Positions 2,658 to 20,499 of a stretch of 64,000 nucleotides of DNA are shown piece by piece. This DNA is from Candidatus Uhrbacteria bacterium (GTDB lineage Bacteria; Patescibacteriota; Patescibacteriia; UBA9934; GWF2-40-263), in assembly GCA_023246355.1 (NCBI GenBank), contig JAHFIQ010000001.1, positions 222,234-286,233 on the forward strand, in the 5' to 3' direction. Made by a program: the position numbers and the translations under genes. The notes under the pieces are model-generated. The model had not been told where the DNA came from. It did not search any database and was given only the letters and a program-made list of their open reading frames with translations. Every line of letters starts with the position of its first letter. The first letter of the stretch is position 1.

Positions 2658-2706
2658 AAAGCGGCCACCTGTTTAGGTAACCGCCGTTGGTCGAAATAAA
2701 TTCGAT

Positions 2707-3651
2707 CTAGAACTGCACCAGGAAGCGGAAGGCGATGTTGACGAGCCGGTTGCCGCTCCAGTAGTCGTTGACATACGCGAGCCCACCGTCGCCGGTGTGG
2801 CCCACGATGAGCGCGCCCTGGGAACCGCAGCGGTTCTCGCACCACTCCACTGCATTGGTAGAACCAAGGTCTGGGAAGGAGTCGGCGGTGTGCTGGGTCA
2901 CCCAGTTGAAGAGGTTCCCCATGAAGTTGAAGGCCTTCACGGACTGGATGCGGGAATTGCCACCCAGGGGCTTGAAGACCCCTGAGACCTTGGGGAGGAT
3001 GTCCGCCACGAGGTCGTCTCCCTCACCCTTTTCCGAGTGCGGGTGGCTGAAGCGGGTCTTGAGGCCGATCGTCACCATGAGCCGGTCGTCGGGGTAGACG
3101 CCGTCCTGGTAGTTGGGCTTCTGGATGACCTCGAAGGCAATCCACCTTCCCAGCAACGGAAGAGGCGTGACATCAGCACCCGACAGGTATCGTTTCCAGT
3201 CAGGCTTCACGAAGCTCTTGGGATAGTCCTTCTCCTTCCAGGCCGGGACGAAGAAGAGCCCGAGCTTGAACTTGGCCATCAACCGACGTTGAGCACGGTT
3301 GAAGTCCGGTGGCTCAGGCAACTCGGTCTTGGGGCTGCCTTCCATCTCGTGCAAGGCGTCGAAGATCGTCTGCATCCAGGTGTGGAGCTGCGCCTTCCAG
3401 TCCTTTCCCGTGAGGCTGGGGTACTTGAGGCTCTTCAGGTGGTCGGAATGGGACTGCCGCCGCGACAGTTCCGCTTCTTCACGCTCGACGATCTCCGTCA
3501 GTTCAAGGAGGAAGCCTTCGCCGCGTGCTCCCAGCACTCCGGCGTGATTGAACAGGTCGAAGTACTTCACGATCGTGGGCATGCCCTCGCCGCCCGTACG
3601 ATTGACCTGACTGACGAGCTCCTTGACCCATGAAGGAATACTGAATTGCAT
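2707..3651 (-). CDS. high-GC hypothetical protein with FGE/C-type-lectin-like C-terminal domain; paralog of the DGR target
   Basis: About 60% GC. C-terminus VEWCENRCGSQGALIVGHTGDGGLAYVNDYWSGNRLVNIAFRFLV aligns with the DGR target C-terminus STWCWLRTRFGRGALDACDLGGVVRVF. Start chosen at MQFSIPSW (3651), which has a GGAGAG SD; the ORF track extends to 3666. Confidence 0.55.
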   Translation of the reverse strand: MQFSIPSWVKELVSQVNRTGGEGMPTIVKYFDLFNHAGVLGARGEGFLLELTEIVEREEAELSRRQSHSDHLKSLKYPSLTGKDWKAQLHTWMQTIFDALHEMEGSPKTELPEPPDFNRAQRRLMAKFKLGLFFVPAWKEKDYPKSFVKPDWKRYLSGADVTPLPLLGRWIAFEVIQKPNYQDGVYPDDRLMVTIGLKTRFSHPHSEKGEGDDLVADILPKVSGVFKPLGGNSRIQSVKAFNFMGNLFNWVTQHTADSFPDLGSTNAVEWCENRCGSQGALIVGHTGDGGLAYVNDYWSGNRLVNIAFRFLVQF

Positions 3652-3738
3652 TGTCTCTCCAGCCACAGGTACCAGTTCCTCCTCGACTGAGTAAACAGTC
3701 GATTTGGTTCTCCCTATGGACGGTTGTCCTACACGGTG

Positions 3739-3826
3739 CCGCCGTGCCGGTGTGAGTGCAAAACCGACGGTTTTCGGCTCTGCAAACGACTGGAGACTAT
3801 ACTCCCGTTTGGCGGAAAAGTCAAGG
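3739..3826 (-). promoter_or_regulatory. conserved promoter plus 5' leader element, copy A
   Basis: Minus strand reads TTGACT-17nt-TATAGT (-35 at 3819..3824, -10 at 3796..3801). The ~75-nt transcribed leader is about 85% identical to copy B at 16354..16442. Confidence 0.6.
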
Positions 3827-3846
3827 AATTGGTATGTTTGTGTGGT

Positions 3847-3984
3847 ATGTCAATAAAAAACGAGTATCCTGAAGGAGTTTACAGACCTATATTCGTCCAG
3901 CGTATGCGAGAGGCGCTCGACGATAAACCGATCTACTCTTACACAGACCCTGGCTCGCTCCTCAAACAGCTCGAAAAACTATGA
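3847..3984 (+). CDS. small hypothetical ORF (45 aa), possibly an orphan antitoxin-like protein
   Basis: ATG at 3847; its stop overlaps the rpe start (ATGA). No recognisable motif. Confidence 0.25.
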   Translation: MSIKNEYPEGVYRPIFVQRMREALDDKPIYSYTDPGSLLKQLEKL

Positions 3985-4673
3985 TCGAAATCGTGCCGGC
4001 CTTTTTGGCCGAATCAGAACGTGAGTTTGAGCGCAACCTTCGGCTGGTCGAGAACGACTGCCAGCTCATCCAGGTCGACGTGCTCGACGGCTCGTTGTTT
4101 CCCAACACCTGCTGGTTCGACGCGGAGCGAATCGGCAACCTCAAGACCAACGTCGAAATGGAACTTCACCTCATGGTCGAGAATCCCATTCCCATCATCG
4201 AGGCGTGGAAAAAATATGTGCCAACCTTCAAACGCGCCATTGTTTCCGCGGAGATGCATCGACCAACAGGCGCGGTCACGGGCTTCATCAAAGACGAACT
4301 CAAACTCGAAGTTGGCGTGGCGCTGAGTCCTGAGTCGCCCCTCAAAGAAATCGAAGAAGTGCTCCACCAAGTTGATGCGCTCACCATCATGAGTGTGCAT
4401 CCAGGTCGCCAAGGTCAAACCTTTGGCGATCCTGAGCACGGGGGAAACCTCCCGTTCATCTTGGAAAAAATCGCCCAAGCTCGGGCGCATCGACCTGATC
4501 TCATGATCGAAGTAGACGGAGGCGTGACAGCTGAACTCATCCCGGCTCTGATAAAAGCTGGTGCCAATCGTCTGTGTGTTGGTGGCGCGATCTTCAAATC
4601 AACTGACCCAGCTGGTACACTGAAGGAAATGAACCAATACCTTTATGAACTTTTGCAAAACAGCGCAGGCTAA
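3981..4673 (+). CDS. rpe: ribulose-phosphate 3-epimerase
   Basis: LHLMVENP and MIEVDGGV motifs; 230 aa. The last three codons and the stop are supplied by a REP element. Confidence 0.85.
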   Translation: MIEIVPAFLAESEREFERNLRLVENDCQLIQVDVLDGSLFPNTCWFDAERIGNLKTNVEMELHLMVENPIPIIEAWKKYVPTFKRAIVSAEMHRPTGAVTGFIKDELKLEVGVALSPESPLKEIEEVLHQVDALTIMSVHPGRQGQTFGDPEHGGNLPFILEKIAQARAHRPDLMIEVDGGVTAELIPALIKAGANRLCVGGAIFKSTDPAGTLKEMNQYLYELLQNSAG

Positions 4674-5457
4674 AGCCTGCGGCTACCTCACAATCTTTAC
4701 CCTGCTCGCCATCCTTGCCCTACCTGTTCACGCCGCCACCGTCTCCGCTGACGACCTCACGCCTGGCGATCTGATCCGTGGGGAATCTTTTTCCGCTGTC
4801 TACTACTATGCAGAAGATGGGCTGCGCTACGTTTTCCCAAATAGCAAAGTCTACTTCACGTGGTACGAGGACTTCGACGATGTGAGCTGGCTTTCCGATG
4901 AAGATCTCGCCACCATAGAAATCGGCGGCAACGTCACCTACAAACCAGGCATCAAGATGGTCAAGATCAACTCCAGTCCCCAGGTCTATGCGGTTGGAGC
5001 TGGTGGTATCTTGCGCGGCATTGCATCTGAAAACGTTGCACAAGAACTCTACGGCGAGGATTGGAACCAGAATATTGATGACATCCCTGATGGATTTTTT
5101 GGCAACTATGAAATTGGAGAGGACATCGAACTTTCAACCCAGTACGATCCAGATGTTGAAGAGCAAGACGCTCAAGACATCGATGACGATCGCGACATCA
5201 AACCGTTTGTGGAGATCACGGTCACAGAGGAAGGCTACAGCGAACCAACCGTGACTATCGACTCAGGAACAGCCGTCCGATGGACGAATGAGGGAGAAGA
5301 AAACCACACCGTGACGGAATGGGATAGCGTCTGGGGATCTGGAACGCTGAAGCCCGGTCACCACTTCACCCACTATTTCCGGGAAGAAGGCACCTGGCAC
5401 TACTATTCAAAAACCGACGATCGCAACATCTTTGAAGGTGCTGTGATTGTGGAATAA
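4645..5457 (+). CDS. secreted protein with degenerate cupredoxin-like C-terminal domain (paralog A)
   Basis: Signal peptide. About 60% identical to 5533..6348, but the copper-site residues are replaced (WHYYSKTDD versus FHCKYHSSM). Confidence 0.6.
   Translation: MNFCKTAQAKACGYLTIFTLLAILALPVHAATVSADDLTPGDLIRGESFSAVYYYAEDGLRYVFPNSKVYFTWYEDFDDVSWLSDEDLATIEIGGNVTYKPGIKMVKINSSPQVYAVGAGGILRGIASENVAQELYGEDWNQNIDDIPDGFFGNYEIGEDIELSTQYDPDVEEQDAQDIDDDRDIKPFVEITVTEEGYSEPTVTIDSGTAVRWTNEGEENHTVTEWDSVWGSGTLKPGHHFTHYFREEGTWHYYSKTDDRNIFEGAVIVE
4663..4687 (+). repeat. REP element copy 1 (GCGCAGGCTAAAGCCTGCGGCTACC)
   Basis: Palindromic core GCAGGCT.AAGCCTGC with a GTAG/CTAC end. The same 25-mer recurs at 12876, 13404, 13442 and 48977. 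Confidence 0.8.
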
Positions 5458-5532
5458 AAGTGGAAAAAAGATTTCTCGCCCTGTTTCCATTGTGCTATAC
5501 TACTGTCGTTCACTAATTTTTGACCCAACCTT

Positions 5533-6348
5533 ATGACAAAACGCCTTTCCTTTTTGTCAGTCTCGCTGCTCGCCATAGCCATGGTTTCAAGCGTTGTTCT
5601 CTCCGGGCTCGTTCCAACCGCTGGCGCCACCAGCCTCACAGATCCAGAAGATCTGGAGCCAGGTGACCTTATCCGTGGAGAAACATTTTCTGCTGTCTAC
5701 TATTACGGTGAAGATGGTTTCCGCTATGTGTTCCCCAACAGCAAAACCTACTTCACTTGGTATGAAGACTTCGACGACGTGGTTTGGTTGTCTGACTCGG
5801 ACATGTCCACGATCCAAATCGGCGGCAACGTCACCTACAAGCCAGGAGTAAAAATGATCAAAATCAACTCTGACCCAACCGTCTACGTGGTAGGCATGGG
5901 CGGAGAAATCCAAGGCATTCCATCGGAGGAAGTAGCTGAAGCGCTCTACGGTTCTACCTGGAACCAACAAATTGACGATGTCCCAGATGGATTCTTTAGC
6001 AACTACACCATGGGCTCGGATCTGGAATTCGCCTCGCAGTTTGATCCAGATGCAGAAGAAGCTGAGGCCGACTCCATCAACGATGACAAAGCTCTTCAAC
6101 CCTACGTCACCATCACCATCACGGACAACGAATACAGCGACGAGAACCTCACGGTCGAAGCGGGAACCGCCGTGCGCTTCGTGAATGAAGGAAGCAGCAA
6201 CCACACGGCAAGTGCAGACGACGGCTCCTGGGGAACCGGAACCCTCGCCAGTGGCAAGAACTTCTCGCGTTACTTTGACGAGGAAGGCGACTATGACTTC
6301 CACTGTAAGTATCATTCAAGCATGACGGGAACGATCACTGTTGAGTAA
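5533..6348 (+). CDS. secreted cupredoxin (plastocyanin/azurin-like) domain protein (paralog B)
   Basis: C-terminal YDFHCKYHSSMTG fits the type 1 copper site pattern H..C..H....M, with an upstream His at NHTA; signal peptide. Confidence 0.65.
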   Translation: MTKRLSFLSVSLLAIAMVSSVVLSGLVPTAGATSLTDPEDLEPGDLIRGETFSAVYYYGEDGFRYVFPNSKTYFTWYEDFDDVVWLSDSDMSTIQIGGNVTYKPGVKMIKINSDPTVYVVGMGGEIQGIPSEEVAEALYGSTWNQQIDDVPDGFFSNYTMGSDLEFASQFDPDAEEAEADSINDDKALQPYVTITITDNEYSDENLTVEAGTAVRFVNEGSSNHTASADDGSWGTGTLASGKNFSRYFDEEGDYDFHCKYHSSMTGTITVE

Positions 6349-6373
6349 ACTGTAGAAAAATCGAATGGTTATC

Positions 6374-6405
6374 AAAGCCGGAGTTCGTACTCCGGCTTTA
6401 TGTTT
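6374..6405 (+). terminator. rho-independent terminator
   Basis: Hairpin AAGCCGGAGTtcgtACTCCGGCTT followed by TATGTTT. Confidence 0.6.
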
Positions 6406-6422
6406 GCTAGAATGATTGCACT

Positions 6423-7322
6423 ATGCCGAATTTGACTATGGGTCCCAAGGTTCGAAAACCTTTGCATCTGCATGACAAAAAACTCAAGCAACTAGAGGAA
6501 CGTGCACAGATGATCCGCGAGGACGTGATCGACATGCTGGTGCAAGCTGGTTCTGGACACTCGGCTGGACCTCTTGGGATGGCGGACATCTTCACCGCCC
6601 TCTATTTTCACGTCCTGGTTCATGACCCCAAACGCCCTGACTGGAAAGACCGCGATCGTCTAATCCTGAGTAACGGCCACATCTGTCCCATCCGCTACGC
6701 CACCATGGCGCATGCTGGCTACTTCCCAAAAAAACTGTTGATGACCCTGCGCAAGCTCGGCTCACCGTTGCAAGGACATCCTGAACGAGAAAAACTTCCG
6801 GGGGTTGAGACTACCTCTGGTCCACTTGGTTCAGGATCATCACAAGCCGCAGGACTTGCCTACACCGCTCTCTTGGATCGATCCCCATGGCGAGTGTACT
6901 GCGTGATGAGCGACGGAGAATTGGCTGCCGGACAAACCTGGGAAGCCATGCTGTTTGCTAGCCGCAACAAACTCTACAACTGCACATTCGTGATCGATCG
7001 CAACAACATCCAAATCGATGGCACGACCGAGGAGATCATGCCGCTTGAACCCTTGGCCGCAAAGTTCGAAGCGTTCAATCTCAACGTCGAGCACTGCGCA
7101 GGAAACTCGATTCGAGATTTTGTCACAGCGATTGAGCGTGCGCACTCTGTCAGTGAAAAACCCACCGTGATCATCGCAGACACGATCCCCGGCTACGGCG
7201 TTGAGTTCATGGAGCATGACTTTCTCTGGCACGGAAAACCGCCATCCCCTGGAGAAGAGGCCCACCTGGCCATCGAACAACTCAGAACACTCTCAGGAAA
7301 AATAATAAGTGAGCATCAATAA
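6423..7322 (+). CDS. tkt: transketolase, N-terminal subunit (split tkt)
   Basis: GSGHSAGPLGMADI thiamine-diphosphate-binding region; 299 aa matches the N-terminal half only. Confidence 0.85.
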   Translation: MPNLTMGPKVRKPLHLHDKKLKQLEERAQMIREDVIDMLVQAGSGHSAGPLGMADIFTALYFHVLVHDPKRPDWKDRDRLILSNGHICPIRYATMAHAGYFPKKLLMTLRKLGSPLQGHPEREKLPGVETTSGPLGSGSSQAAGLAYTALLDRSPWRVYCVMSDGELAAGQTWEAMLFASRNKLYNCTFVIDRNNIQIDGTTEEIMPLEPLAAKFEAFNLNVEHCAGNSIRDFVTAIERAHSVSEKPTVIIADTIPGYGVEFMEHDFLWHGKPPSPGEEAHLAIEQLRTLSGKIISEHQ

Positions 7323-8256
7323 ATCTATGACCATTCAAAAAGCTCTACCCTGGATCACACGCGGCTTTGCCATCGTTGGGATCGTCGCTCTTATCTGGTG
7401 GGTCGCTCAATATTTCACCGGCGTTCAACCTGTCTTTACGACATCTTCTGGAGATTACTACGAACAGACCATGATCGGGTCGTCTGCATCTTTTGCAGGT
7501 GACTACGGTGAAAAAGCGATCATGCCAGGAGAAGAACTTTTGTACGACTCAGCCCTTGCCGCTGAGATCGATCAGAAGATCATCAAGACAGGCGACCTGT
7601 CGTTGATTGTTCTGGACGTGGAAAAAAGTGCCGATGTCGTGAAGGCTCTTGCGTCAGAAAAAAACGGCTATGTTCAGTCATCATCCGTATCTGAACACGA
7701 AGACGGAACACTTTCAGGCTACGTGATCATCCGTGTCCCAGCCGATCAATTTGATACAAGCGTTGAAGCGTTGAAAGCTGAGGCGCTCGTTGTCGAAGAA
7801 GAATTTGTTTCCACGCAAGACGTAACCGAGCAGTACATCGACCTTGCCGCACGTCTGAAAAATGCTCAAGTACAAGAAACGCGCTACGTGGAAATCTTGG
7901 ACGTCGCCAACACGGTGGAAGAAATTTTGCAGATTGAAAATGCGCTTGCAAACGTCCGCGGCACCATCGAATCGCTCACTGGACAAATTCAATATCTCGA
8001 CTCACAAACAAACTTCTCCACGATCACAGTGAATCTCGATGAGGAACCGGTGATCACCGTGGGCGGAAAAGAGTTTCGCCCAGGCACCACTGTGAAACTT
8101 GCTGCCCAGGCCGTCGTGCGTTTGGCTCAATGGCTCGTTGAGGCCATCATCTGGCTCGTCATCGTCGGCATTGGGATTGGTGTGCCACTGCTTATTCTTG
8201 GATGGATTCTTGTGGTAAAAATTGGAAAGAAATTGATCAATCGATTCAGGAAATAA
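7309..8256 (+). CDS. DUF4349-like membrane-anchored protein
   Basis: N-terminal TM, central coiled-coil region, C-terminal TM; resembles DUF4349 architecture. Confidence 0.5.
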   Translation: MSINKSMTIQKALPWITRGFAIVGIVALIWWVAQYFTGVQPVFTTSSGDYYEQTMIGSSASFAGDYGEKAIMPGEELLYDSALAAEIDQKIIKTGDLSLIVLDVEKSADVVKALASEKNGYVQSSSVSEHEDGTLSGYVIIRVPADQFDTSVEALKAEALVVEEEFVSTQDVTEQYIDLAARLKNAQVQETRYVEILDVANTVEEILQIENALANVRGTIESLTGQIQYLDSQTNFSTITVNLDEEPVITVGGKEFRPGTTVKLAAQAVVRLAQWLVEAIIWLVIVGIGIGVPLLILGWILVVKIGKKLINRFRK

Positions 8257-8286
8257 GTATGGCCAAAGCACGATCTGCAACCGGCA

Positions 8287-9333
8287 TCAACCGTTCTTGA
8301 ACTTCATACGTTTTACCAAATTGAGTAGTCGCCTCTGATTCCTAAATTCCTGACCATGGTCGAAAGCCGACAAACAGGACTGAATTGTCTCACTGAAATT
8401 TTCCTCTAGGATGCCCGTATCCTCGTATTGCGCTACTAAATTCTCAACCCGTCCGAAAAGTCGTTTTCGCGTTGTTCTCCTCATTGTTCGTACCGTTGGT
8501 CTCAACACCCAACCAAGAAAGTCGACACCTTGTTGGTATGTCCGAATGGAAACCTTGTACGGATGAAGGCGCAAAAGTAGACGTCGTGAGAGATACGATT
8601 CAATTTGCAGAAGGGCTGATTCCAAAAACTGACGACTCTCGTGAAGGAGAATAAAATCATCACAAAACCGAATGTACCACCGTATCCTCAGGTGTTCCTT
8701 CACCCAATGGTCGAACGCATTGAGGTAGACGTTGGCAAAAAGTTGGCTGGTGACATTCCCAAGTGGGAGTCCGCACGATACCCCCTTGACAGACAAGTGG
8801 CTTGCTACGACTTGGCCTATAAGCCGCAACAATGGTTCATTGGTGACACGCCGTGCAAGCATCCCCATAAGCACATCGTGCTGTATCGAATCGAAAAATT
8901 TGGAGATGTCGCACTTGAGCGCATAAATGCGACGCGAGTCGTTACAGGATCCTCGTCTCAAAAAATCTTCAAGTCGGTCAATCGCCGCATGCGTCCCTTT
9001 TCCCTTACGCGAAGCAAACGAATCGAAAATGAAGGATGACTCGAAAGCCGGTTCCAAGACGTTCACAAGCGCCTGATGTACAACCCTGTCACGAACGCTT
9101 GCTTTGCTGATGTACCGACGTTTCGGATCATGAATATAAAATTGCTCATACCCACCGTGGAGATAGGATCCATTCTCAAGGTCGTGTACCAGATCAAACA
9201 ATTCATCCTCAAGCCTCATGGAAAATTGAAGCACATCTTGCTTGGCCATCTTTCCACAACTGAATACTTCCCAGGCATCAAACAAATTTTCTAACGAAAT
9301 AACTTCTTGTAGTGATCCGTTCCTATGAGTCAC
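8287..9333 (-). CDS. DGR reverse transcriptase
   Basis: 348 aa; LPLGNVTSQLFANVYLNAFD is the DGR-specific SQ variant of RT motif 4, and FCDD stands in for YxDD. Confidence 0.85.
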   Translation of the reverse strand: MTHRNGSLQEVISLENLFDAWEVFSCGKMAKQDVLQFSMRLEDELFDLVHDLENGSYLHGGYEQFYIHDPKRRYISKASVRDRVVHQALVNVLEPAFESSFIFDSFASRKGKGTHAAIDRLEDFLRRGSCNDSRRIYALKCDISKFFDSIQHDVLMGMLARRVTNEPLLRLIGQVVASHLSVKGVSCGLPLGNVTSQLFANVYLNAFDHWVKEHLRIRWYIRFCDDFILLHESRQFLESALLQIESYLSRRLLLRLHPYKVSIRTYQQGVDFLGWVLRPTVRTMRRTTRKRLFGRVENLVAQYEDTGILEENFSETIQSCLSAFDHGQEFRNQRRLLNLVKRMKFKNG

Positions 9334-9361: not shown

Positions 9362-9736
9362 TTGACTGGATTCTCCGGTGAAGAATTCGGATTGGTTCAT
9401 AAATTGTATGAATGGTACAAGCTCCTGCACACCGATGTGATTAGGTTCCCCAAAACGGAACGATACACGATTGGTGAAGTGTTGAAGATGCGGACACTTC
9501 AGCTCATCGAAGGAATCTGGGAGGCGAACTCCCTACCACTCCCAGAACGCCTTGCCTTACTCGACCGACTACAACGATCACTCGACCTTATAAAAATCCT
9601 CATTCGCCTCACGTACGATCTAGGAATCTACAAACGTGATGGTTACATCTATCGGGAAAACCGACTCATGGAAATCGGTCGCATGCTCGGAAGTTGGCGA
9701 AAGAAGACACGAGGCCGCTTGGGTCTCGTGTCTTAA
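9362..9736 (+). CDS. avd: Avd-like accessory variability determinant (four-helix-bundle, TIGR02436-like)
   Basis: 124 aa, basic; LYEWYKLL, FPKTERYTIG and a C-terminal EIGRMLGSWRKK resemble Avd proteins. TTG start. It lies on the strand opposite to the RT and TR. Confidence 0.6.
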   Translation: MTGFSGEEFGLVHKLYEWYKLLHTDVIRFPKTERYTIGEVLKMRTLQLIEGIWEANSLPLPERLALLDRLQRSLDLIKILIRLTYDLGIYKRDGYIYRENRLMEIGRMLGSWRKKTRGRLGLVS

Positions 9737-9746
9737 CAGTTAACGG

Positions 9747-9867
9747 CTTCCACGGCACGGCCACCTTCATTGTCGTACGGGATCGAGAGATTGTCAGCGT
9801 CGTTCCTGTTGACCCTCACCTCGCCGTCGTTGTCGTTGGCGTTGAGAGCACCCTGGCCGAAGCGCGT
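9747..9867 (-). repeat. DGR template repeat (TR)
   Basis: 121-bp match to the VR. On the coding (minus) strand every one of the 18 differences is an A in TR (AAC codons N-A-N-D-N-D..N-R-N..). The 3' end carries the IMH*-like GGTGGCCGTGCCGTGGAAG. Confidence 0.85.
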
Positions 9868-10145: not shown

Positions 10146-10182
10146 GCCCTGCTCCGCTACCGCTTGGTAGCAAGAGCAGGGC
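10146..10182 (-). promoter_or_regulatory. GC-rich nested hairpin immediately 3' of the VR (DGR target-recognition hairpin and/or terminator)
   Basis: GCCCTGCTC-tt-GCTACC-aagc-GGTAGC-g-GAGCAGGGC, followed by a T-rich run. Confidence 0.6.
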
Positions 10183-10195: not shown

Positions 10196-10942
10196 TCAAG
10201 CAGCATTCTTGACCACTTCCACGGCACGGCCACCCTCATTGCCGAACGGGATCGAGAGAGAGGCAGCGTCGCACCTGAAGACCCTCACCACGCCGCCGAG
10301 GTCGCAGGCGTCGAGAGCACCCCGGCCGAAGCGCGTGCGCAGCCAGCACCAGGTGCTGACGTCGATGTGCTCGCCGATGAGGTCGCGGTGCGTCCAGTAG
10401 ACGATCGCGTATTCCTCCAGCGAGAGGAGCTTCACCGCCGCGGTGAGGTCATTCCAGCTCGTATTGATCCGGGGGCACCTGGGAGCGATCTCCACAGTGA
10501 ACCAGTAACCAGCCTGGGCGATCTCCCAGCCGATCTTGGCACGGTCGTCGGCGTTCGCGACAGTCCAGTGATTGGACTGACCGTGCGCAATCATCCACCC
10601 TTCATAGGTCATCTCGACCGTCGACGGGCGGTAGAACAGCTCGCGACCTTCGCGGCGCCAGCGCTTGAGGGTCGTGTTGGAGACGCCGGGCCTGGGCACC
10701 GCGATCGTGAACCCGCGGGCGCGGAAGTTCGCCTCGATGGCGACACGGCGCTCCTCGGCCAGGTCGACCTTGGGCCTGTGGTCCTTCTCGCCGGCCTTTG
10801 CGCGAACTTCGGCCTCGCTGGTGCCGTCGATGATCGCCTGCAGGACAGTACGAGCAATCGCGGCCTTGGCCGGATCGGCGAGGGCGTGGCGTTGTGCTTC
10901 GTCAAACTGGCGCCGGAGCGCCAACTCAATCATGGCTTCCAT
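10196..10942 (-). CDS. DGR target protein (high GC; C-terminal C-type-lectin/FGE-like variable domain)
   Basis: VR sits at the C-terminus. Start chosen at MEAMIE, which has an AAGGAAAG SD; the ORF track extends to 11035. Confidence 0.7.
   Translation of the reverse strand: MEAMIELALRRQFDEAQRHALADPAKAAIARTVLQAIIDGTSEAEVRAKAGEKDHRPKVDLAEERRVAIEANFRARGFTIAVPRPGVSNTTLKRWRREGRELFYRPSTVEMTYEGWMIAHGQSNHWTVANADDRAKIGWEIAQAGYWFTVEIAPRCPRINTSWNDLTAAVKLLSLEEYAIVYWTHRDLIGEHIDVSTWCWLRTRFGRGALDACDLGGVVRVFRCDAASLSIPFGNEGGRAVEVVKNAA
10216..10336 (-). repeat. DGR variable repeat (VR) at the 3' end of the target gene
   Basis: Encodes TRFGRGALDACDLGGVVRVFRCDAASLSIPFGNEGGRAVE against the TR-encoded TRFGQGALNANDNDGEVRVNRNDADNLSIPYDNEGGRAVE. 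Confidence 0.85.
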
Positions 10943-11035
10943 GGTCTTTCCTTTGCTTGTGCCCATGTCGCGCCGGAGCGCAGAGGCACGTTTTGCCCCA
11001 AATTCCAGGCCGAACGCCCAGGTTGGAACCAACAA

Positions 11036-12925: not shown

Positions 12926-13402
12926 ATGCTTCCAATCGAACGACCACATCGACTGGAACGTGACGATTACGAAGGTTTTCTCTGTTGTACATTCACTTGT
13001 TGCATTGAAAATAGGAAAAACTTTTTTGTCACACCGGAGATCTTTTCAATCTTCGAATCAAAGCTGCGACACGTTCTTGAAAAGAATCATTGTGGTGCTC
13101 ATGTTTATCTGTTCATGCCAGACCACCTTCATATTTTAGCAGAAGGAAAATCAGAAGAAGCGGATCTCTGGAAAATGATCGTCGACTTTAAGCAGCAAAC
13201 TGGATATTGGCTCTCAAAAAATGGAAATGGAATTCGATGGCAAAAAGATTTTTATGATCACATCCTTCGAGAGGAGGAGGATGTGACAAAGCACATGGCC
13301 TATATTCTCGATAACCCCATCCGTGCTGGTCTTGCGCGAGATTGGAGGGACTACCTGTACAAAGGATCGACACTCTATAATCTTCATGAACTCGAAATCT
13401 AG
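12926..13402 (+). CDS. REP-associated tyrosine transposase (RAYT, IS200/IS605-like Y1 HUH transposase)
   Basis: HLHIL (HuH) and YILDNPIRAGLA motifs; flanked by REPs in opposite orientations. Confidence 0.8.
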   Translation: MLPIERPHRLERDDYEGFLCCTFTCCIENRKNFFVTPEIFSIFESKLRHVLEKNHCGAHVYLFMPDHLHILAEGKSEEADLWKMIVDFKQQTGYWLSKNGNGIRWQKDFYDHILREEEDVTKHMAYILDNPIRAGLARDWRDYLYKGSTLYNLHELEI

Positions 13403-13403
13403 G

Positions 13404-13428
13404 GCGCAGGCTAAAGCCTGCGGCTACC
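13404..13428 (+). repeat. REP element copy 3
   Basis: GCGCAGGCTAAAGCCTGCGGCTACC. Confidence 0.8.
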
Positions 13429-13441
13429 GTCAAAAACCTAC

Positions 13442-13466
13442 GCGTAGGCTAAAGCCTGCGGCTACA
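13442..13466 (+). repeat. REP element copy 4
   Basis: GCGTAGGCTAAAGCCTGCGGCTAC. Confidence 0.75.
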
Positions 13467-13472
13467 ACTTCT

Positions 13473-14444: not shown

Positions 14445-14445
14445 T

Positions 14446-15369
14446 ATGCTCGTCTCTCTCAAAGACCTCCTCACAAAAGCCTCTCGCGGTCACTATGCCG
14501 TCGGAGCCTTTAACGTTAACAATCTTGAAACCATCCAGGCGATCATGGATGCAGCAGACGCTGAGAGAGCGCCGGTGATTCTCTCAACCTCTGAAGGGGC
14601 CATTGACTACGCTGGCATGGAGGAACTCGCAAGCCTCGCTCATATCGCCGCACGCAGAACAAAACGGCCAGTCGTGTTTCACCTTGATCATGGAAAAAAT
14701 TATGACTTGGTTGTTGAAGCAATCGCGTCAGGCTGGTACACGAGCGTGATGTACGACGGCTCATCACTTCCGCTCACGGAAAACATCAAGCGAACAACGC
14801 AGATCGTAAAGCTCGCGCACAAGAAAAAAATCAGTGTCGAGGCAGAGCTCGGCGCGATCGCCGGCATCGAAGATTTTGTGTCCGTGGAAGATCGCGATGC
14901 GCATCTCACGGATCCCGAGCAGGCAGCCGAATTTGTGAAAAAGACTGGATGTGATGCCCTCGCCATCGCCATCGGCACCAAACATGGCGCGTTCAAGTTC
15001 ACAGGTGAATCACGACTCGACTTCGGTCGCCTCAAAGAAATCGCCGAGCGCGTTTCTGTTCCCTTGGTCTTGCACGGTGCCTCAGGCGTTCCTGCCAATA
15101 TCAAAAAAATCTGCACCACGTACGGCTGCGAAATTTCAAGCGCCAAAGGCGTCTCCGATTCAGCGGTGCGTAAGGCGGTGATGCTGGGTGTGTGCAAAGT
15201 GAACGTGGACACGGACCTGCGTCTGGCGTTTGATGCTGGGATCCGCAAATTTCTGAAAGAACGCCCCGAGGTCATCGACCCACGTGAAATTTTAAAACCC
15301 GCCAAGGAGTTGATGACCAAAGTCGTAAAACAAAAAATGAAAATGCTTGGGAGTAGTGGGAAAGGATAG
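14446..15369 (+). CDS. fba: class II fructose/tagatose-bisphosphate aldolase
   Basis: VVFHLDHG, LHGASG and GVCKVNVDTD motifs. Confidence 0.85.
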   Translation: MLVSLKDLLTKASRGHYAVGAFNVNNLETIQAIMDAADAERAPVILSTSEGAIDYAGMEELASLAHIAARRTKRPVVFHLDHGKNYDLVVEAIASGWYTSVMYDGSSLPLTENIKRTTQIVKLAHKKKISVEAELGAIAGIEDFVSVEDRDAHLTDPEQAAEFVKKTGCDALAIAIGTKHGAFKFTGESRLDFGRLKEIAERVSVPLVLHGASGVPANIKKICTTYGCEISSAKGVSDSAVRKAVMLGVCKVNVDTDLRLAFDAGIRKFLKERPEVIDPREILKPAKELMTKVVKQKMKMLGSSGKG

Positions 15370-15477
15370 CTTTCAACTTGAGGTTGCCAATCAAACTCTG
15401 GTCAAGGCTCTTTCGAGGATTTCGGGGACGGCAAACCTTGATCGGCCGTTCATCACCCTACTCTCACAAATGAGTGT

Positions 15478-15510
15478 AAATGAAAACGTCCGGGTCTCCC
15501 AGACCGGACG
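15478..15510 (-). terminator. terminator of the minus-strand high-GC gene
   Basis: On the minus strand: CGTCCGGtctgggagaCCCGGACG followed by TTTTCATTT. Confidence 0.5.
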
Positions 15511-15564
15511 TGAAGGAAGAAGGTTGAGGCTCAAAGAAGATTGAACCATGAGGGATGAATGTTG

Positions 15565-16275
15565 CTACTTCCGGCGAAGACGCACGGTCCCGTAACCCGG
15601 GTCGGCGAGGCCAGAGCGCCTGTCGAGGTCGAGCCTCACCTGACCCCTCCACACCTCGAGGAAGGCACAGTTCATGCGGCTGTCACGGAGCACCGTCCTG
15701 GGGAGGTCGATGGAGTGCTCGTTCTCCACCACGATCGTTGGGTGAAGGGCGTAGGCGAAGACGCCTTCGAGAGCCGTACCGGCCAGGACGTCGCCGACGA
15801 GCTCGTCTCGGCAGTGGTCGGGGCGACGGTTGCGGTTCTTGCGTCCGTCGTCGTGGCGGAACCAGAACGGCTCGGTGGGGAGCGGGAAGTTCTGGTCGAA
15901 GGGCTCGGCTGAGTCCTCGGCGTAGCCCAGCTCCTCGTACTCGATTTCCAGCATCCTGCAGGAGCGCAGAAGTCCCGGACGAGGGTCGCACAGGGAGAGC
16001 AGCGGTAGCTCTGGGTCGTCGGCGACCAACCCTTCCGGAATCTTGGGGATCCCGGCCAGGTACGCCTTGAAGTTCTTGGCGCCGACACTCGGGTCACGAC
16101 CGAAGCCCCGATCCCACAGGCGCTTGGCCTGAATGCGCCACTGGTTCACGCCGCCCATCTCCAGGCGACGGATAAGTTCCTCGACCTCTGAGCCGATGCC
16201 TTCCTGACCGGCGCTCAGTCGCGCAGCCTGGATCTCGTGGAGCTTGGCCACATGGCCAACATCGAACAGTCTCAT
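15565..16275 (-). CDS. high-GC hypothetical protein (236 aa)
   Basis: About 66% GC. Shares the conserved promoter/leader with the 2707 gene; weak similarity to the N-terminal regions of 2707 and the DGR target. Confidence 0.5.
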   Translation of the reverse strand: MRLFDVGHVAKLHEIQAARLSAGQEGIGSEVEELIRRLEMGGVNQWRIQAKRLWDRGFGRDPSVGAKNFKAYLAGIPKIPEGLVADDPELPLLSLCDPRPGLLRSCRMLEIEYEELGYAEDSAEPFDQNFPLPTEPFWFRHDDGRKNRNRRPDHCRDELVGDVLAGTALEGVFAYALHPTIVVENEHSIDLPRTVLRDSRMNCAFLEVWRGQVRLDLDRRSGLADPGYGTVRLRRK

Positions 16276-16353
16276 TTGAAACTCCGTAAGTCGGTATCCT
16301 CACAAGAGCCTAAGCCCTCTGTTTGGTACGCCGACGGACAGATGCGCACAGTT

Positions 16354-16442
16354 CCGCCGTGCCGGTGTGTGTGTGCAAAACCGGAGGATTCCGGCTCTGC
16401 AAACGACTGGAGACTATACTCCTGTTTGGCGGAAAAGTCAAG
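16354..16442 (-). promoter_or_regulatory. conserved promoter plus 5' leader element, copy B
   Basis: TTGACT(16436..16441)-17nt-TATAGT(16413..16418); the leader is about 85% identical to copy A. Confidence 0.6.
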
Positions 16443-16462
16443 AGTTGATATAGTATTCGTAT

Positions 16463-16657
16463 ATGAATTACCCATTCACGGTCACAAAAAAGGACGAGAC
16501 ATACACTGTTCAATTTGGTCAAGAATATTGGGAAAAATTTGCTGCCGCCATGGGTCTTTTGTCTGACGAATGTCTTGCAAGCATCCAGATGGCTGAGGAG
16601 GATTTCAAAAAAGGACGTGTACTCACTATAAAATCTTTCAGAGAGCTCGAGGATTAA
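16463..16657 (+). CDS. type II antitoxin (64 aa)
   Basis: Small acidic ORF; its stop overlaps the toxin start (ATGA). Confidence 0.5.
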   Translation: MNYPFTVTKKDETYTVQFGQEYWEKFAAAMGLLSDECLASIQMAEEDFKKGRVLTIKSFRELED

Positions 16658-16932
16658 TGGCTATGCGTTCCCTCATTGCCTCATCTGAATTCAGGCGTCG
16701 ATACAATGAACTTCCAGAAACAGTCAAAGATCGACTCGACAAACAGAAGGAACTCCTCACGACAGACATTCGACATCCTTCGCTCCACGTAGAAAAGCTC
16801 GCACCCAAGAGCAAAAATATGTGGAGTTTTCGAATAGATATTCACTACCGTGTTCTCTTTCAAGTGCTTGATAACGGAGACCTCTTTCTCCTGACCGTCG
16901 GAACCCATGATTGGGTGTATCGACGCATCTGA
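16657..16932 (+). CDS. RelE/ParE-superfamily toxin
   Basis: WSFRIDIHYRVLFQVLDNGDLFLLTVGTHD is the RelE/ParE C-terminal pattern. Confidence 0.6.
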   Translation: MAMRSLIASSEFRRRYNELPETVKDRLDKQKELLTTDIRHPSLHVEKLAPKSKNMWSFRIDIHYRVLFQVLDNGDLFLLTVGTHDWVYRRI

Positions 16933-16936
16933 ATCT

Positions 16937-17941
16937 ATGTACGACGTCATAACCATCGGCGCGGCCACACGAGACGTTTTTCTCGTGTCTGACAAATTCA
17001 TCGCACTCAAATCACGCAAGTTTGGAACAGGTGCGGGAGAATGCGTGGCGCTTGGATCAAAAATTGACATTGACGAGCTTGTGCTGACAACTGGTGGCGG
17101 CGCAACCAATGCGGCGGCCACGTTTGCTCACTTAGGATTTCGTACCGCTACCATTTGTCGCATCGGTGATGACTCCCCTGGCAAAGACGTGGTTGAGGAC
17201 CTGACCGCCCAGGGAGTCAGCACACATTTGGTGCGCATGATGAGAGGCGGCGAGACGGCGTACTCAACGCTTCTCACCATGAAAGATGGTGAGCGCACGG
17301 CTCTCGTGCATCGGGGAACAAGCTCTTCATTCACACAGGCCGATATTCCTGTATCGATCTTTGAACAGACACGTTGGATCTATCTCACTTCCCTGGGAGG
17401 AAATCTTCCGCTCGTACGAAAGATCGCCACAGCCGCGCAAAAGGCCAATGTAAAAATTGCGTGGAACCCAGGTGGAGCTGAACTCAAAGGTGGATTTGCA
17501 AGCATCGAAACACTGCTTCCGATGATTTCAGTTCTGATCATGAACCGCGAGGAAGCAATGCTTCTCACAAAAAAATCCGGCCTAAAGGCCGGATCCGGCT
17601 CCGCCGGAAAGGACCTCACAAAAATCTTTGAATTACTCCACACAGATGGGGCTGTGCATCTGGTCACCGACGGTACCAACGGATCAACGGTGTATCGCGA
17701 CGGCTGGATGGCCCATGCGGGAACCAGTGGAGTGAACGGCATTTCTCGCACCGGAGCTGGTGACGCATTTGGATCTGGATTTGTCGCCGGACTCATCAAA
17801 ACGGAAGATCTCAAAGAAGCCCTGCGTGTGGGCACACTGAACGCCGAGTCTGTCATTCAACAATTCGGCGCAAAAAAAGGTATTTTGAAATCCTGGCCAG
17901 GACAACTTAAAAAACAACGGATCAAGATTTCGGTTTTATGA
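16937..17941 (+). CDS. PfkB-family sugar kinase (second copy)
   Basis: TGAGDAFGSG motif; start at MYDVITIG. Confidence 0.75.
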   Translation: MYDVITIGAATRDVFLVSDKFIALKSRKFGTGAGECVALGSKIDIDELVLTTGGGATNAAATFAHLGFRTATICRIGDDSPGKDVVEDLTAQGVSTHLVRMMRGGETAYSTLLTMKDGERTALVHRGTSSSFTQADIPVSIFEQTRWIYLTSLGGNLPLVRKIATAAQKANVKIAWNPGGAELKGGFASIETLLPMISVLIMNREEAMLLTKKSGLKAGSGSAGKDLTKIFELLHTDGAVHLVTDGTNGSTVYRDGWMAHAGTSGVNGISRTGAGDAFGSGFVAGLIKTEDLKEALRVGTLNAESVIQQFGAKKGILKSWPGQLKKQRIKISVL

Positions 17942-18924
17942 GACATCACGTTTTCGTGACGCGGAAAATTCCAGACGAAGGGCTCAAGATGCTCAAAGCC
18001 GATAAGCGCATCGCGCTTTCTGTCTATCAAAAAAACCAAGTCATTCCACGCGCTGAACTTTTGCGTCGTGTGAAAGGGATGAACATCATCCTTTCGATCC
18101 TCACCGAAAAAATCGATGCAGCGGTCATGGACGCAGCTGGACCATCCCTGAAGATGATCGCCAACTACGCGGTTGGGTTTGATAACATCGATCTTGCCGA
18201 AGCAAAAAAACGAGGTATCGCCGTCACCAATGCGGCTCATCCGTGTGTCTCTGAATCTGTGGCTGAGCACACCATCGCTTTGTTGTTTGCCTTGGCTCAC
18301 AGGATCGTAGAAGCAGATCACTTCACGCGGTCAGGTCAGTACAAGGGCTGGGAGCCTGAGCTTCTGCTCGGAGGTGACCTCATGGGCAAAACACTCGGCC
18401 TCATCGGCACAGGTAATATCGGCACCATGGTTGCGCGCCGACTCTCAGGAGGATTTGGCATCAAGATTCTCTACACGGACGTGAAACGCAATCCTGCATT
18501 TGAAAAAGCATTCGGTGCAAAATTTAAAAGCAAGGAAGCGCTCCTGCGCGAATCTGATTTTGTGTCCCTGCATGTCCCGCTACTTCCCGCAACGCAACAC
18601 CTGATGAATCATGCCGCGTTTGGACTCATGAAATCGTCTGCCTTCTTGATCAACACGGCGCGTGGTCCTATCGTTGATTCTGCCGCCCTCGTAGATGCCT
18701 TGAAGAAAAAACAAATTGCTGGCGCCGCTCTTGACGTCTTCGAAGGCGAGCCTACATTTGCTCTCAAAAAAAGTGATGCGACGTTTCTTCAGCATGCCTG
18801 GAACGTCATTCTCACCCCACACACGGCCTCGGCCACGGTTGAAACACGACAAGCCATGAGTCGTACAGCCGCTGAAAATATCTTGGCGTTTGTAAGAGGC
18901 AAACGACCACCGAATCAAATTTAA
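17938..18924 (+). CDS. D-isomer-specific 2-hydroxyacid dehydrogenase (glyoxylate/hydroxypyruvate reductase-like)
   Basis: GLIGTGNIGTMVARRL NAD-binding motif and catalytic-domain pattern. Confidence 0.8.
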   Translation: MRHHVFVTRKIPDEGLKMLKADKRIALSVYQKNQVIPRAELLRRVKGMNIILSILTEKIDAAVMDAAGPSLKMIANYAVGFDNIDLAEAKKRGIAVTNAAHPCVSESVAEHTIALLFALAHRIVEADHFTRSGQYKGWEPELLLGGDLMGKTLGLIGTGNIGTMVARRLSGGFGIKILYTDVKRNPAFEKAFGAKFKSKEALLRESDFVSLHVPLLPATQHLMNHAAFGLMKSSAFLINTARGPIVDSAALVDALKKKQIAGAALDVFEGEPTFALKKSDATFLQHAWNVILTPHTASATVETRQAMSRTAAENILAFVRGKRPPNQI

Positions 18925-18959
18925 AAGCGACGAACCTTCGTTCATCGCTGAGATGCCGC

Positions 18960-20363
18960 CTATTGTGGGTGGCGTTTTTCGTATTCACTCTGACGTGCAC
19001 GCGCTTCGTCTGCCAACTTTGGCCAGACCTGCTTCTCGATCTGCGCGCGAAACGCTTCGTCGAAAAGAACCTTGTAGATCCACTCGTACTTCAGCAGATA
19101 CAGCCGCGTTTCCTCGGGCAACTCCACACAGGCCTTTCCTGTGGAAGCCTGATCCGGGCTCCTCTGTGCACAGGAAGCAGCGCAGTCGTTCTCCCTCCAA
19201 CGCTCTTTGCATTCGTGGATCACACGGTGGACCGTCGCCACGTTCGCGTTGTACCCGGCGGCCAGGACGAGCTGACGTTCCCATACATTGTTTACGATGT
19301 AGGTCCGATGGGCGTCTTCATCTTTGCCAGCGAAGGTCCAGAGCTCTGCGTCCGCGTGACAGATCATCGCCTTGATCGAGGTGTGATGATCTGTGCGACC
19401 GTCCACGGAATTTTCGGGAAGGTCTGCACGGGGATACTGCTCACGAATGGCCTTGTAAGGACCACCGACAATCTGACCGATCCCACGCGCATCTGCGAAG
19501 GACTTGGTGTACTGGTAGCTGCGCCAGCGGTTGAGGCTCAGAGTCACCAGGGCGCGATCGAGCATTTCGAGTCGATCGGCATCCGTGCCTTCCACAAACC
19601 ACTTGTCCGAGTACATCTGCTCGGTCAAGATGAGCGCGATCACGTGGTCGGGTGTGCCGAAATCGGTCACGTAGCGGTTGGCGATGAACTGACTGCGTAC
19701 ATCCTTTGCGCGCAGCTCGTAGAACGCGGCCAAAACCGCATCGCGTAGATACTCCACGCCAGCCGTCCGAAGCTCGGGGTCGTTGAGCCTGGTCGAATAG
19801 GGAATGTAGACCGCTGGACTGATTCCGTCAGGACCATTCGTGTCGTAAACCGCGGTTCGAATCGCGACCACTGTCCAGCCCGGAGGCGAGAAGACATTGA
19901 ATGGCGGATTGACTCCACCATTGCAGGCGCCGTCACGCTCGCATCTGACCGTGAAGCCTTCCTGCGACGGTTTGCCGCCATAGACTTCGATGAGTTGCAT
20001 CTTCCCCTGTTCATTGGAAGCCGCCAGAAGGTAGTCTCCCAGACAGCGCTTCCATCCTTCCTGTGAGTCGCTTTTGGGCACACACTTCTCTTGCGAGAGA
20101 TGCGAGGAGGAGACGAGCTTCACTCCATAGCGGATCACCTCCACAAGATCTTGTGGCACGTCCGGCAAACGCGGAGGCCCTGGAGGGACGAACGCTCTGT
20201 GACCGTCGATCTGCACCGCGACCACAGGGGGCGGCGCCGCGAAAGGGTCGATCACGTCGACAGACTGCTGTGCTGGATTGCAGGCTCGCAGCAGCAGCGG
20301 CAGCAACAACATGAGGGCAAGCAGCATCGCAACCGCTTTGAGCGGATGATACTTGGTAAGCAC
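18960..20363 (-). CDS. high-GC secreted lipoprotein, hypothetical (possible lytic-transglycosylase-like)
   Basis: Lipobox LLRAC; about 63% GC; own TTGACA-17-TATCTT promoter. GIGQIVGGPY only weakly resembles the SLT motif. Confidence 0.45.
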   Translation of the reverse strand: MLTKYHPLKAVAMLLALMLLLPLLLRACNPAQQSVDVIDPFAAPPPVVAVQIDGHRAFVPPGPPRLPDVPQDLVEVIRYGVKLVSSSHLSQEKCVPKSDSQEGWKRCLGDYLLAASNEQGKMQLIEVYGGKPSQEGFTVRCERDGACNGGVNPPFNVFSPPGWTVVAIRTAVYDTNGPDGISPAVYIPYSTRLNDPELRTAGVEYLRDAVLAAFYELRAKDVRSQFIANRYVTDFGTPDHVIALILTEQMYSDKWFVEGTDADRLEMLDRALVTLSLNRWRSYQYTKSFADARGIGQIVGGPYKAIREQYPRADLPENSVDGRTDHHTSIKAMICHADAELWTFAGKDEDAHRTYIVNNVWERQLVLAAGYNANVATVHRVIHECKERWRENDCAASCAQRSPDQASTGKACVELPEETRLYLLKYEWIYKVLFDEAFRAQIEKQVWPKLADEARARQSEYEKRHPQ

Positions 20364-20402
20364 GGGGCCTCCCGTTCGTGAGGGACATCCTCAGAACTGA
20401 AA

Positions 20403-20431
20403 AAAGATACAGGAAACTTGCGGTTTTGTCA
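20403..20431 (-). promoter_or_regulatory. sigma70-like promoter (TTGACA-17nt-TATCTT)
   Basis: The -35/-17/-10 architecture is near-identical to the DGR target promoter, including AAAACCG..TTTCCTG in the spacer. Confidence 0.55.
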
Positions 20432-20499
20432 AACGATCCGATTGACACAGGCCCAGAGCATTGATACGATTCCGCCGTCCAAAAGTCACACAGGCTGAT

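Follow-up and report, generated by a model that had tools for sequence, protein, structure and literature searches.

Probable diversity-generating retroelement-type variable proteins among GC-rich, strongly promoted single genes in a Candidatus Uhrbacteria metabolic cluster

Introduction

In the genome of a Candidatus Uhrbacteria bacterium, four GC-rich genes on the minus strand stand among housekeeping genes of pentose-phosphate and glycolytic metabolism, and each is preceded by a near-consensus promoter. The question raised by this locus is what such genes encode and whether they are foreign to the genome that carries them. The window analysed was a stretch of 64,000 nt of contig JAHFIQ010000001.1 from assembly GCA_023246355.1 (positions 222,234 to 286,233 of the forward strand). 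The four genes were labelled H1 to H4, and loci fetched from other sequences via homologs were given labels of the form L018. All coordinates are those of the window unless a fetched locus is named, and the features are collected in Table 1. The answer judged probable is that H1, H2 and H3 are native Uhrbacteria variable proteins of the type diversified by diversity-generating retroelements (DGRs), that H4 is a conserved lytic transglycosylase, and that all four are strongly promoted single-gene units.

Four GC-rich genes with near-consensus promoters

The composition profile of the window, which has 51% GC overall, showed islands at 2.7-3.7, 10.2-11.0, 15.5-16.3 and 19.0-20.4 kb, each corresponding to one minus-strand open reading frame (ORF). 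The original prediction, made from the sequence of the window, had placed four GC-rich minus-strand genes at these positions, and the GC and codon profiles agreed with it (GC 0.58-0.65; GC at the third codon position, GC3, 0.69-0.82). The remaining ORFs of the window had a median GC3 of ~0.55. Across the three codon positions the GC content of the H genes was strongly periodic at ~0.6, 0.4 and 0.8, and the large excess of GC3 over the second position indicates that H1 to H4 are real coding sequences.

The same periodicity bears on the notion that the GC-rich stretches represent structured non-coding RNAs, or else ORFs of the spurious sort that GC-rich DNA often contains. Long overlapping ORFs are present on both strands of each island, and searches of Pfam and NCBIfam with H1 to H4 returned zero matches, as such a notion would have it. 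Against it, dozens of full-length homologs with conserved columns were found, AlphaFold2 (AF2) gave confident models with predicted local distance difference test (pLDDT) scores of 85 and 94, and Rfam gave zero matches. Conservation at the protein level refutes the non-coding reading, whose probability is taken to be negligible.

Each of the four genes was confirmed to have TTGACA or TTGACT upstream, followed after exactly 17 nt by TATAGT, TATTGT or TATCTT. On both strands of the 64-kb window, only 10 sites matched the consensus at 10 or more of 12 positions; five were upstream of GC-rich genes and three upstream of the 23S rRNA or tRNAs. The promoters of H1 to H4 matched the consensus no less closely than the 23S rRNA and tRNA promoters do. 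The two promoters said to have spacer sequence in common proved to be those of H2 and H4, with the spacer TTGACAAAA(A)CCG..TTTCCTGTAT; a shuffle test of this pattern is circular, the pattern having been derived from those same two copies.

A diversity-generating retroelement at H2

Based on the adenine pattern between a template repeat (TR) and a variable repeat (VR), together with a reverse transcriptase (RT) that has the RVT_1 domain and an LGNVTSQ motif, and with an accessory protein, Avd, the H2 locus is read from its sequence as a complete DGR with H2 as its target. The TR and VR were 84% identical over 128 nt, and 18 of the 21 mismatches fell on TR adenines in the minus-strand reading. 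The other three were all inside the last 11 nt, as expected for an end resembling the initiation of mutagenic homing (IMH) element. When adenines were disregarded, 93 of 96 positions were identical, and scanning the window with the TR in this adenine-blind way revealed no VR beyond that of H2. The translated RT shows the motifs LGNVTSQ, of a type which we take to be a DGR-specific RT signature, and FCDD, and is 48% identical to the RT of a second Uhrbacteria DGR at L018. For Avd, the Pfam match above the gathering cut-off (Table 1) was accompanied by a match to NCBIfam DivGenRetAVD at 2.3e-15, which is under the cut-off of that model. The GC-rich nested inverted repeat just past the H2 stop codon is a candidate DGR target-recognition hairpin (compare PMC3240598).

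The H2 family comprised 115 clusters at 50% identity. Matches began at about residue 31 of the query, which makes the ATG at ~10945 the probable true start and gives a protein of 249 aa. Contigs identical to the window occur in several metagenome assemblies.

If the element works as other DGRs do, RNA of the TR would be copied by the RT with Avd into cDNA, with the template adenines randomised, and the cDNA would then replace the VR of H2, so that some 18 positions or more on the binding face would be changed.

As a separate observation, avd was opposite in strand to the target, the TR and the RT in both Uhrbacteria DGRs seen, the one in the window and the one at L018 (avd at 3582-3887 of that locus). 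With this orientation, a TR transcript running past the TR would be antisense to avd.

The presence of an RT could also be explained by an anti-phage defence island, consisting of a retron, a defence-associated RT (DRT) or an abortive-infection (Abi) RT with toxin-antitoxin genes, in which the GC-rich genes would be the effectors; defence-associated cargo had been among the original suggestions. The RT does have sub-threshold NCBIfam matches to Drt3a, Drt2 and a retron RT, and RelE/ParE, AbiEii, HicAB and PIN modules adjoin H genes. The scores against the defence RT models, however, were far under their cut-offs (70 vs 200 bits and 52 vs 390 bits), Avd with an adenine-specific TR/VR pair is diagnostic of a DGR, and a lectin fold, firm for H3 and weak for H1 (see below), argues for ligand binding. 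A defence island is therefore regarded as very unlikely. The companion suggestion, that the genes are DGR-associated, fared well, given that H2 is a target with RT, Avd and TR adjacent and that H1 and H3 have VR-type C-termini.

VR-type C-termini of H3 and H1

The fold of H3 matched dozens of C-type lectin domains, and the assignment of a C-type-lectin fold to H3 is firm. Two further copies were found in the genome of the window, namely a paralog with 69% identity and the tail of a third copy. When H3 was compared with these two, its C-terminal 47 codons exhibited the codon signature of a DGR. In the pairwise comparison with the paralog, codons 190-237 had no changes at position 3 and 22 at positions 1 and 2 (0 synonymous and 17 non-synonymous), against 25 and 19 changes, respectively, in codons 50-190 (16 synonymous and 18 non-synonymous). 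In addition, almost all variable columns of the C-terminal block have an A in at least one copy, and the invariant core of the VR is GGTGTGGAGGGGTCAGGTG. This codon-position pattern points to repeated rewriting from one adenine-bearing template rather than to ordinary divergence. H3 and its paralogs are postulated to be rewritten from a TR situated outside the window.

Six metagenome contigs that are 100% identical to the window all stop at 15506 or 15774, positions that fall at the 3' end of H3 or within it. These ends were considered as a sign of hypervariability and set aside, since a 140-nt identical stretch shared by the H3 paralogs accounts for them equally well. The H3 genes were also observed to have a conserved 3' untranslated region of their own (AACATTC...TTGAGCCTCAACCTTC).

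For the H1 family, the C-terminus consists of a conserved scaffold with hypervariable columns, EWCEN..GS...LIVG.S..GGLA.V...WR..R.....FRVLVVL. The AF2 model of H1 had a pLDDT of 84.8, and its best Foldseek matches were EgtB, formylglycine-generating enzyme (FGE), PvdO, CarF, TvpA and Mtd, the list being made up almost only of FGE and C-type-lectin proteins. An FGE/C-type-lectin-like fold is thereby weakly suggested for H1 by the model. At L018, in another Uhrbacteria genome, an H1-like gene (25% identity, E 8e-26) lies behind the same leader as H1 (see below). There, the TR at 3901-4027 and the VR at 4323-4449 differed at 18 positions, 15 of which were TR adenines, and the layout was that seen at H2, with the TR followed by the opposite-strand Avd and then the RT. 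As this distant family member has its own TR, Avd and RT, H1 may be, or may once have been, a DGR target of the same kind. In L007, the H1 homolog has a match of 35 nt on its downstream side (E 0.005), too weak to be accepted as a TR. In three genomes (L007, 6943-6985; L009; L013), the H1 homologs are followed directly past their stop codons by a run of CCTGG motifs (CCTGGATTCCTGGCTCCTGGTCCCCTGG), which is not present 3' of H1 in the window.

Profile comparison of H1 with H2 gave an E value of 0.0038 and a probability of 9%, a hint at most. When members of the H1 family were searched one by one against Pfam, only noise was returned, and PDB sequence profiles gave nothing meaningful for H1 or H4.

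A promoter-leader module shared by H1 and H3

The regions upstream of H1 and H3 were found to be 90% identical over 96 nt comprising promoter and leader (3732-3825 vs 16347-16442). Patterns searched in GTDB representative genomes and Joint Genome Institute (JGI) metagenomes, plus the loci fetched via homologs, yielded 14 distinct copies of the leader; this is a lower bound, as the strict patterns gave four GTDB loci and five JGI loci only. Each copy found sits upstream of an H1-like or H3-like gene. A covariance model recovered two copies in the window and more divergent ones in L012 and L027. Rfam contained no match to the leader, either at the gathering threshold for the window or at E values up to 5 for 3600-3900.

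The module is ~100-150 nt long and is common to the H1-type and H3-type genes of every Uhrbacteria genome examined. Conservation within it covered ~15 nt on the 5' side of the -35 box, both promoter boxes with the spacer TTTTCCGCCAAACAGGAG between them, the start region CCAGTCGTTTGCA, a 10-pair hairpin (P1), and the stretch CACACCGGCACGGCGGMACCGTG with a 5-bp hairpin (P2). Compensatory changes were present in 6 of the 10 pairs of P1, in which 92.9% of cells were paired. P2 gives no covariation evidence, having been forced to be invariant by the search pattern. For the whole structure, 95.2% of cells were paired compared to 27-41% in slid controls. G-U pairs were frequent, so that the structure exists on the sense strand only, which points to RNA. 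Folding of the full leaders gave z-scores of -3.2 and -4.1 and reproduced P1 and P2, and the family-specific 3' halves were predicted to enclose the ribosome-binding sites. Nucleotide conservation of the leader (~67-96%) at least matched the amino-acid identity of the coding regions (52-72%).

The module may give strong, co-regulated expression of H1-type and H3-type genes and, being common to different cassettes, may allow their exchange at the same slot. Two slots have been occupied by both families. Between two GT4 (glycosyltransferase) genes, L007 has a homolog of H1 where L016 has one of H3, and by Bac_transf the H1 homolog of L013 has its counterpart in an H3 paralog of L015, which belongs to the genome of the window.

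Codon bias of the H genes

Third-position adenine (A3) was strongly depleted in the H genes, at 0.01-0.13, a 3-10 fold fall relative to neighbouring genes, whose median was 0.12-0.22 per locus. Third-position T (T3) was about twofold lower, and C was the most raised third base. In every relative examined (at least eight genomes of 52-59% GC), GC3 of the H1, H3 and H4 families was 0.70-0.90 whatever the GC content of the host. The RT and avd genes of the DGR, with third-position A of 0.21-0.29 and T of 0.18-0.29, were not reduced in either base and were host-like or AT-richer. The GC3-rich, A3-poor bias was also found in further GC-rich minus-strand genes of surface type at 40781-41302 and 58960-62559. 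The latter block has near-consensus promoters near 62636 and 60313 and genes for a secreted protein of 275 aa, a lipoprotein of 177 aa and a polytopic membrane protein of 724 aa, and it gave zero Pfam matches for any of the three proteins.

One explanation is that the GC3 bias and the strong promoters are together the mark of very high expression, that is, of translational codon bias, and are unconnected with DGRs. The equal closeness to consensus of the H promoters and those of the 23S rRNA and tRNAs speaks for it, as does the bias of H4 and of the 58960-62559 block, which are not of DGR type. In relatives, however, the ribosomal-protein genes (L31 in L009 and L19 in L012) were depleted in T3 and not in A3, unlike the H genes, and glycolytic and ribosomal neighbours were without the bias. 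High expression as the whole explanation is considered unlikely. Simple erosion of adenines by the RT does not fit as the sole cause, since T3 was also lower and C was raised most. The bias could have arisen through biased gene conversion while cassettes recombined, through selection against adenines, or from an old common origin.

A wider proposal joins the leader and the bias: the leader module would represent a cis-element not described before and specific to the DGR variable-protein genes of Uhrbacteria, co-regulating unrelated lectin-fold cassettes and letting them swap slots, and the A3 depletion would be an adaptation to, or a footprint of, the adenine-mutating RT. This is put forward as a doubtful but conceivable extension. 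If true, it would amount to a distributed, multi-target DGR 'regulon' in a genome of the candidate phyla radiation (CPR), where single adjacent targets are thought to be the rule.

H4, a resident gene with SLT-like motifs

H4 appears to be a predicted lipoprotein with lytic transglycosylase motifs of the SLT type, a resident gene and not a DGR target. A signal peptide with lipobox, of the lipoprotein type, was read at its N-terminus, and the motifs TEQM.SD, GIGQI and AGYNAN were recognised by eye in that order. H4 itself had no match to Pfam SLT, and six of 32 homologs matched weakly (E 8e-4 or weaker). The slot ghrA, H4, tRNA-Ala, YkuD was the same in L026 and L027, with the same promoter, leader and codon bias. 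H4 would accordingly be vertically inherited and secreted, merely having the same promoter style and codon bias as H1 to H3.

Native families or recent arrivals

Repeated acquisition of foreign or phage-derived genes had been the original interpretation of the four GC-rich genes. In its present form it holds that each gene came recently, with its own promoter, from a GC-rich donor, a phage or a mobile element. The H genes are indeed 7-14 GC points over the window mean, and a GC deviation of at least 5% in DGRs was taken as recent transfer by Wu et al. (PMC5758913). Furthermore, homologs of H1 and H3 lie in different slots across genomes: between glycosyltransferases, at tsf/gap, by rplS, by Bac_transf, or between a tRNA synthetase (tRNA-synt_1b, Trp/Tyr type) and RNase J. 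Toxin-antitoxin modules often adjoin them. In relatives (L013, L015, L016 and L026), HicAB, AbiEii, PIN and PemK modules stand beside homologs of H1 or H3 or beside this metabolic cluster, and in the window a candidate toxin-antitoxin pair stands divergent from the H3 promoter, the Pfam matches of its RelE/ParE-like toxin being under gathering scores. In L026, a close relative with 87% identity in a housekeeping protein, fba and pfkB are contiguous, without H3 and the RelE/ParE pair.

The taxonomic distribution is against such a history. Among the homologs of H1 (n = 34), H3 (n = 59) and H4 (n = 56) most matches were unnamed; every named one was from Uhrbacteria or Patescibacteria for H1 and H3 and from Uhrbacteria for H4, other phyla giving none. 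The sources of the named homologs were largely groundwater. Phage sequences in GenBank gave zero matches, and IMG/VR gave none for H1 and a single marginal one for H3 without a clean ORF. The same codon bias in at least eight genomes marks it as a property of the gene families and not of recent arrival, and the RT and avd, which would be expected to travel with their target, do not have it. Divergence of the H genes tracked that of housekeeping genes (52-72% vs 64-87% amino-acid identity). Around the H genes, neither an integrase nor flanking repeats nor att-like sites were noted. Synteny gave a divided picture, with different slots for H1 and H3 across genomes, as noted, and no break at H4. 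In the more distant L027 an H3 ortholog with 75% identity lies beside ghrA, which places the presence of H3 near this cluster before the split of the genomes. Recent transfer is thus regarded as quite unlikely, and the foreign or phage origin first proposed is not supported.

Several observations weigh against native DGR-type variable proteins as a full account of H1 to H3. The VR of H2 was identical in three independent metagenome assemblies, and so ongoing activity is not indicated, although consensus assemblies can hide variation. By self-BLAST with short words, no TR was found for the C-terminus of H1 in the window or the fetched loci searched, nor for that of H3 in the window, in L014 and L015 of the same genome, or in the other fetched loci searched; current diversification of H1 and H3 is on that account unproven. 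Pfam and PDB sequence profiles recognise none of H1, H2 and H3, and an obvious signal peptide is present in none of them. The Foldseek matches of H1 were weak (E 0.04-0.2), and profile comparison found no relation between H1 and H3, which makes them separate families sharing only a fold class. Homogenisation of the leader within genomes is only suggestive (86-96% identity within vs 67-92% between genomes). Lastly, DGR biology leaves the GC3-rich, A3-poor composition unexplained; H4 and other non-DGR genes have it too.

With these points taken into account, the native, DGR-type reading of H1 to H3 is still held to be probable. H1 to H4 would be lineage-specific single-gene transcription units with promoters of rRNA or tRNA quality, and the products of H1 to H3 would be ligand-binding variable proteins, as the lectin fold of H3 and the weaker matches of H1 suggest.

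Table 1. Coordinates of the features described in the 64,000-nt window
Feature	Coordinates	Strand	Remarks
H1	2707-3666	-	GC 0.60, GC3 0.82; 314-319 aa; alternative start ATG 3651
H1 VR-like scaffold	~2710-2832	-	roughly the last 41 codons
H1 promoter	3824-3796 (-35 3824-3819, -10 3801-3796)	-	TTGACT-17-TATAGT
H1 promoter and leader module	3726-3824 (P1 and P2 hairpins 3726-3793)	-	
Terminator-like hairpin 3' of H1	2660-2685	-	
DGR reverse transcriptase	8287-9333	-	Pfam RVT_1 3.8e-24; alternative start of the gene caller 9249, giving 320 aa
DGR accessory protein Avd	9362-9736	+ (opposite strand)	Pfam bAvd 4.8e-11, 43.5 bits (gathering cut-off 40)
Stem-loop directly 3' of TR	9704-9734	-	AAGACACGAG...CTCGTGTCTT; read from sequence, function inferred
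Template repeat (TR)	9740-9867	-	128 nt, 32 adenines
GC-rich nested inverted repeat	10146-10182	-	16 nt past H2 stop; read from sequence
H2	10196-11035	-	GC 0.65, GC3 0.81; carries the VR
Variable repeat (VR)	10209-10336	-	3' end of H2, 13 nt short of the stop codon
H2 promoter	11064-11036	-	TTGACA-17-TATTGT
Terminator-like hairpin 3' of H3	15488-15504	-	
H3	15565-16275	-	GC 0.65, GC3 0.82; 236 aa
H3 VR	~15583-15690	-	C-terminal block
H3 promoter and leader module	16341-16441 (leader 16341-16410)	-	
H3 promoter	16441-16413	-	TTGACT-17-TATAGT
Candidate toxin-antitoxin pair	16466-16932 (toxin 16657-16932)	+	small ORF (by eye) and RelE/ParE-like toxin; divergent from H3 promoter
Terminator-like hairpin 3' of H4	18926-18949	-	
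H4	18960-20363	-	GC 0.58, GC3 0.69
H4 promoter	20432-20404	-	TTGACA-17-TATCTT; kept in orthologous loci

Neighbouring genes and other features of the window

The genes flanking H1 to H4 are rpiB, rpe, tktN, fba, two pfkB genes, a 2-hydroxyacid dehydrogenase and tRNA-Ala(TGC). The names first given to them were mostly right; the single gene said to divide tktN from tktC turned out to be six features (DUF4349, RT, Avd, TR, H2 and an NYN-domain gene).

Within the metabolic cluster, tandem duplicated cupredoxin-like genes were found on the plus strand among the pentose-phosphate genes (4645-5457 and 5533-6348; 65% identity over 642 nt). An IS200-like Y1 transposase (12926-13402, plus strand) is directly followed by two copies of the palindromic element GCGCAGGCTAAAGCCTGCGGCTAC; the palindrome occurs at 4663-4693, 13404-13434, 13442-13472 and 48977-49007, and the arrangement resembles a pair of the RAYT/REP type (REP-associated tyrosine transposase and repetitive extragenic palindrome).

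The 23S rRNA gene (26349-30194, minus strand) is 3846 nt long compared to 2925 nt in the model, with ~900 nt of insertions, and contains an ORF for a LAGLIDADG homing endonuclease (27375-27929, minus strand). Intron-bearing rRNA is typical of CPR bacteria. The 5S rRNA gene at 26175-26284 adjoins it, and the window holds no 16S rRNA gene. On the plus strand, 33091-35787 encodes an 898-aa protein with three Lamin Tail Domains and an oligonucleotide/oligosaccharide-binding (OB)-fold/DUF5689 region, which could be a surface nuclease or a DNA-binding protein, and the ORF 36230-36703 has at least eight tandem units of 21 nt (36269-36504) that encode a heptad-repeat coiled coil (MDQRFDGLEKRFEG...).

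Implications and comparison with known systems

DGRs are abundant in Patescibacteria. Targets of CPR DGRs are almost entirely unannotated and have been thought to be single and adjacent; here, three Pfam-invisible families of DGR type would be encoded in one small genome, only one of them adjoining the RT and two standing behind a shared structured leader. The covariance model of the leader and the A3-poor codon signature provide a handle for finding further CPR DGR targets, and open a route to studying how variable binding proteins are regulated and reshuffled in an episymbiont. The window also cautions against taking every GC-deviant island of a CPR genome for foreign DNA.

The DGR at the H2 locus is a known kind of system. 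CPR-restricted DGR clades have been described (PMC8144416; 'clade 2' of Roux et al. 2021), the targets of CPR DGRs are largely unclassifiable (the 'CPR set' of Wu et al. 2018, PMC5758913), and the DGRs of the CPR usually have one target, remote targets belonging to another lineage (PMC5758913). With these DGRs (PMC8144416; PMC5758913) the H2 locus has in common an RT with a motif of the (I/L)GxxxSQ type, an Avd, a 128-nt TR from which a VR, placed 3'-terminally in a small target gene, differs specifically at adenines, a chromosomal location in a groundwater CPR host, and targets without a Pfam domain. It differs in the opposite strand of avd, in the window as at L018, and in that the genome has at least four more genes of the VR type, namely H1, H3 and the two paralogs of H3, none of them with a TR close by. 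The structured leader, the targets lacking a TR and the codon bias specific to the targets are unusual; that bias is GC3-rich and A3-poor in the target genes and not in the RT or avd. In a text search limited to PMC8144416 and PMC5758913, neither the word 'promoter' nor a target-gene-specific codon bias was found.

Comparison with the variable proteins Mtd of Bordetella phage BPP-1 (1yu0/1yu3) and TvpA of Treponema denticola (2y3c) showed the variable residues in the C-terminal 40-47 codons in each case and a scaffold ending in ...FR(V/F)L, as in many VRs of the FGE type. In contrast to these, sequence similarity is undetectable, the lectin domain is much smaller (~110-130 aa) and lies behind an all-helical N-terminal domain, and H1, H2 and H3 form three separate families restricted to Uhrbacteria and Patescibacteria.

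H4 resembles the family 1 lytic transglycosylases (SLT, PF01464) in having E-S, G-(L/I)-x-Q and A-Y-N-A-(G/N) in order and an N-terminal lipoprotein signal, and departs from them in falling under Pfam detection and in its long Uhrbacteria-specific N-terminal region, which is without a known relative.

Finally, phage 'morons' and integron gene cassettes are likewise single genes of deviant GC among housekeeping genes, most of them equipped with a promoter and terminator of their own, and different cassettes occupy the same slot across genomes. The H genes differ from both in that no phage context, integrase or attC-like 3' sites were seen, and in that the families are lineage-restricted and H4 is stably syntenic. 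Their conserved element, moreover, is a promoter-leader at the 5' end and not a recombination site at the 3' end.

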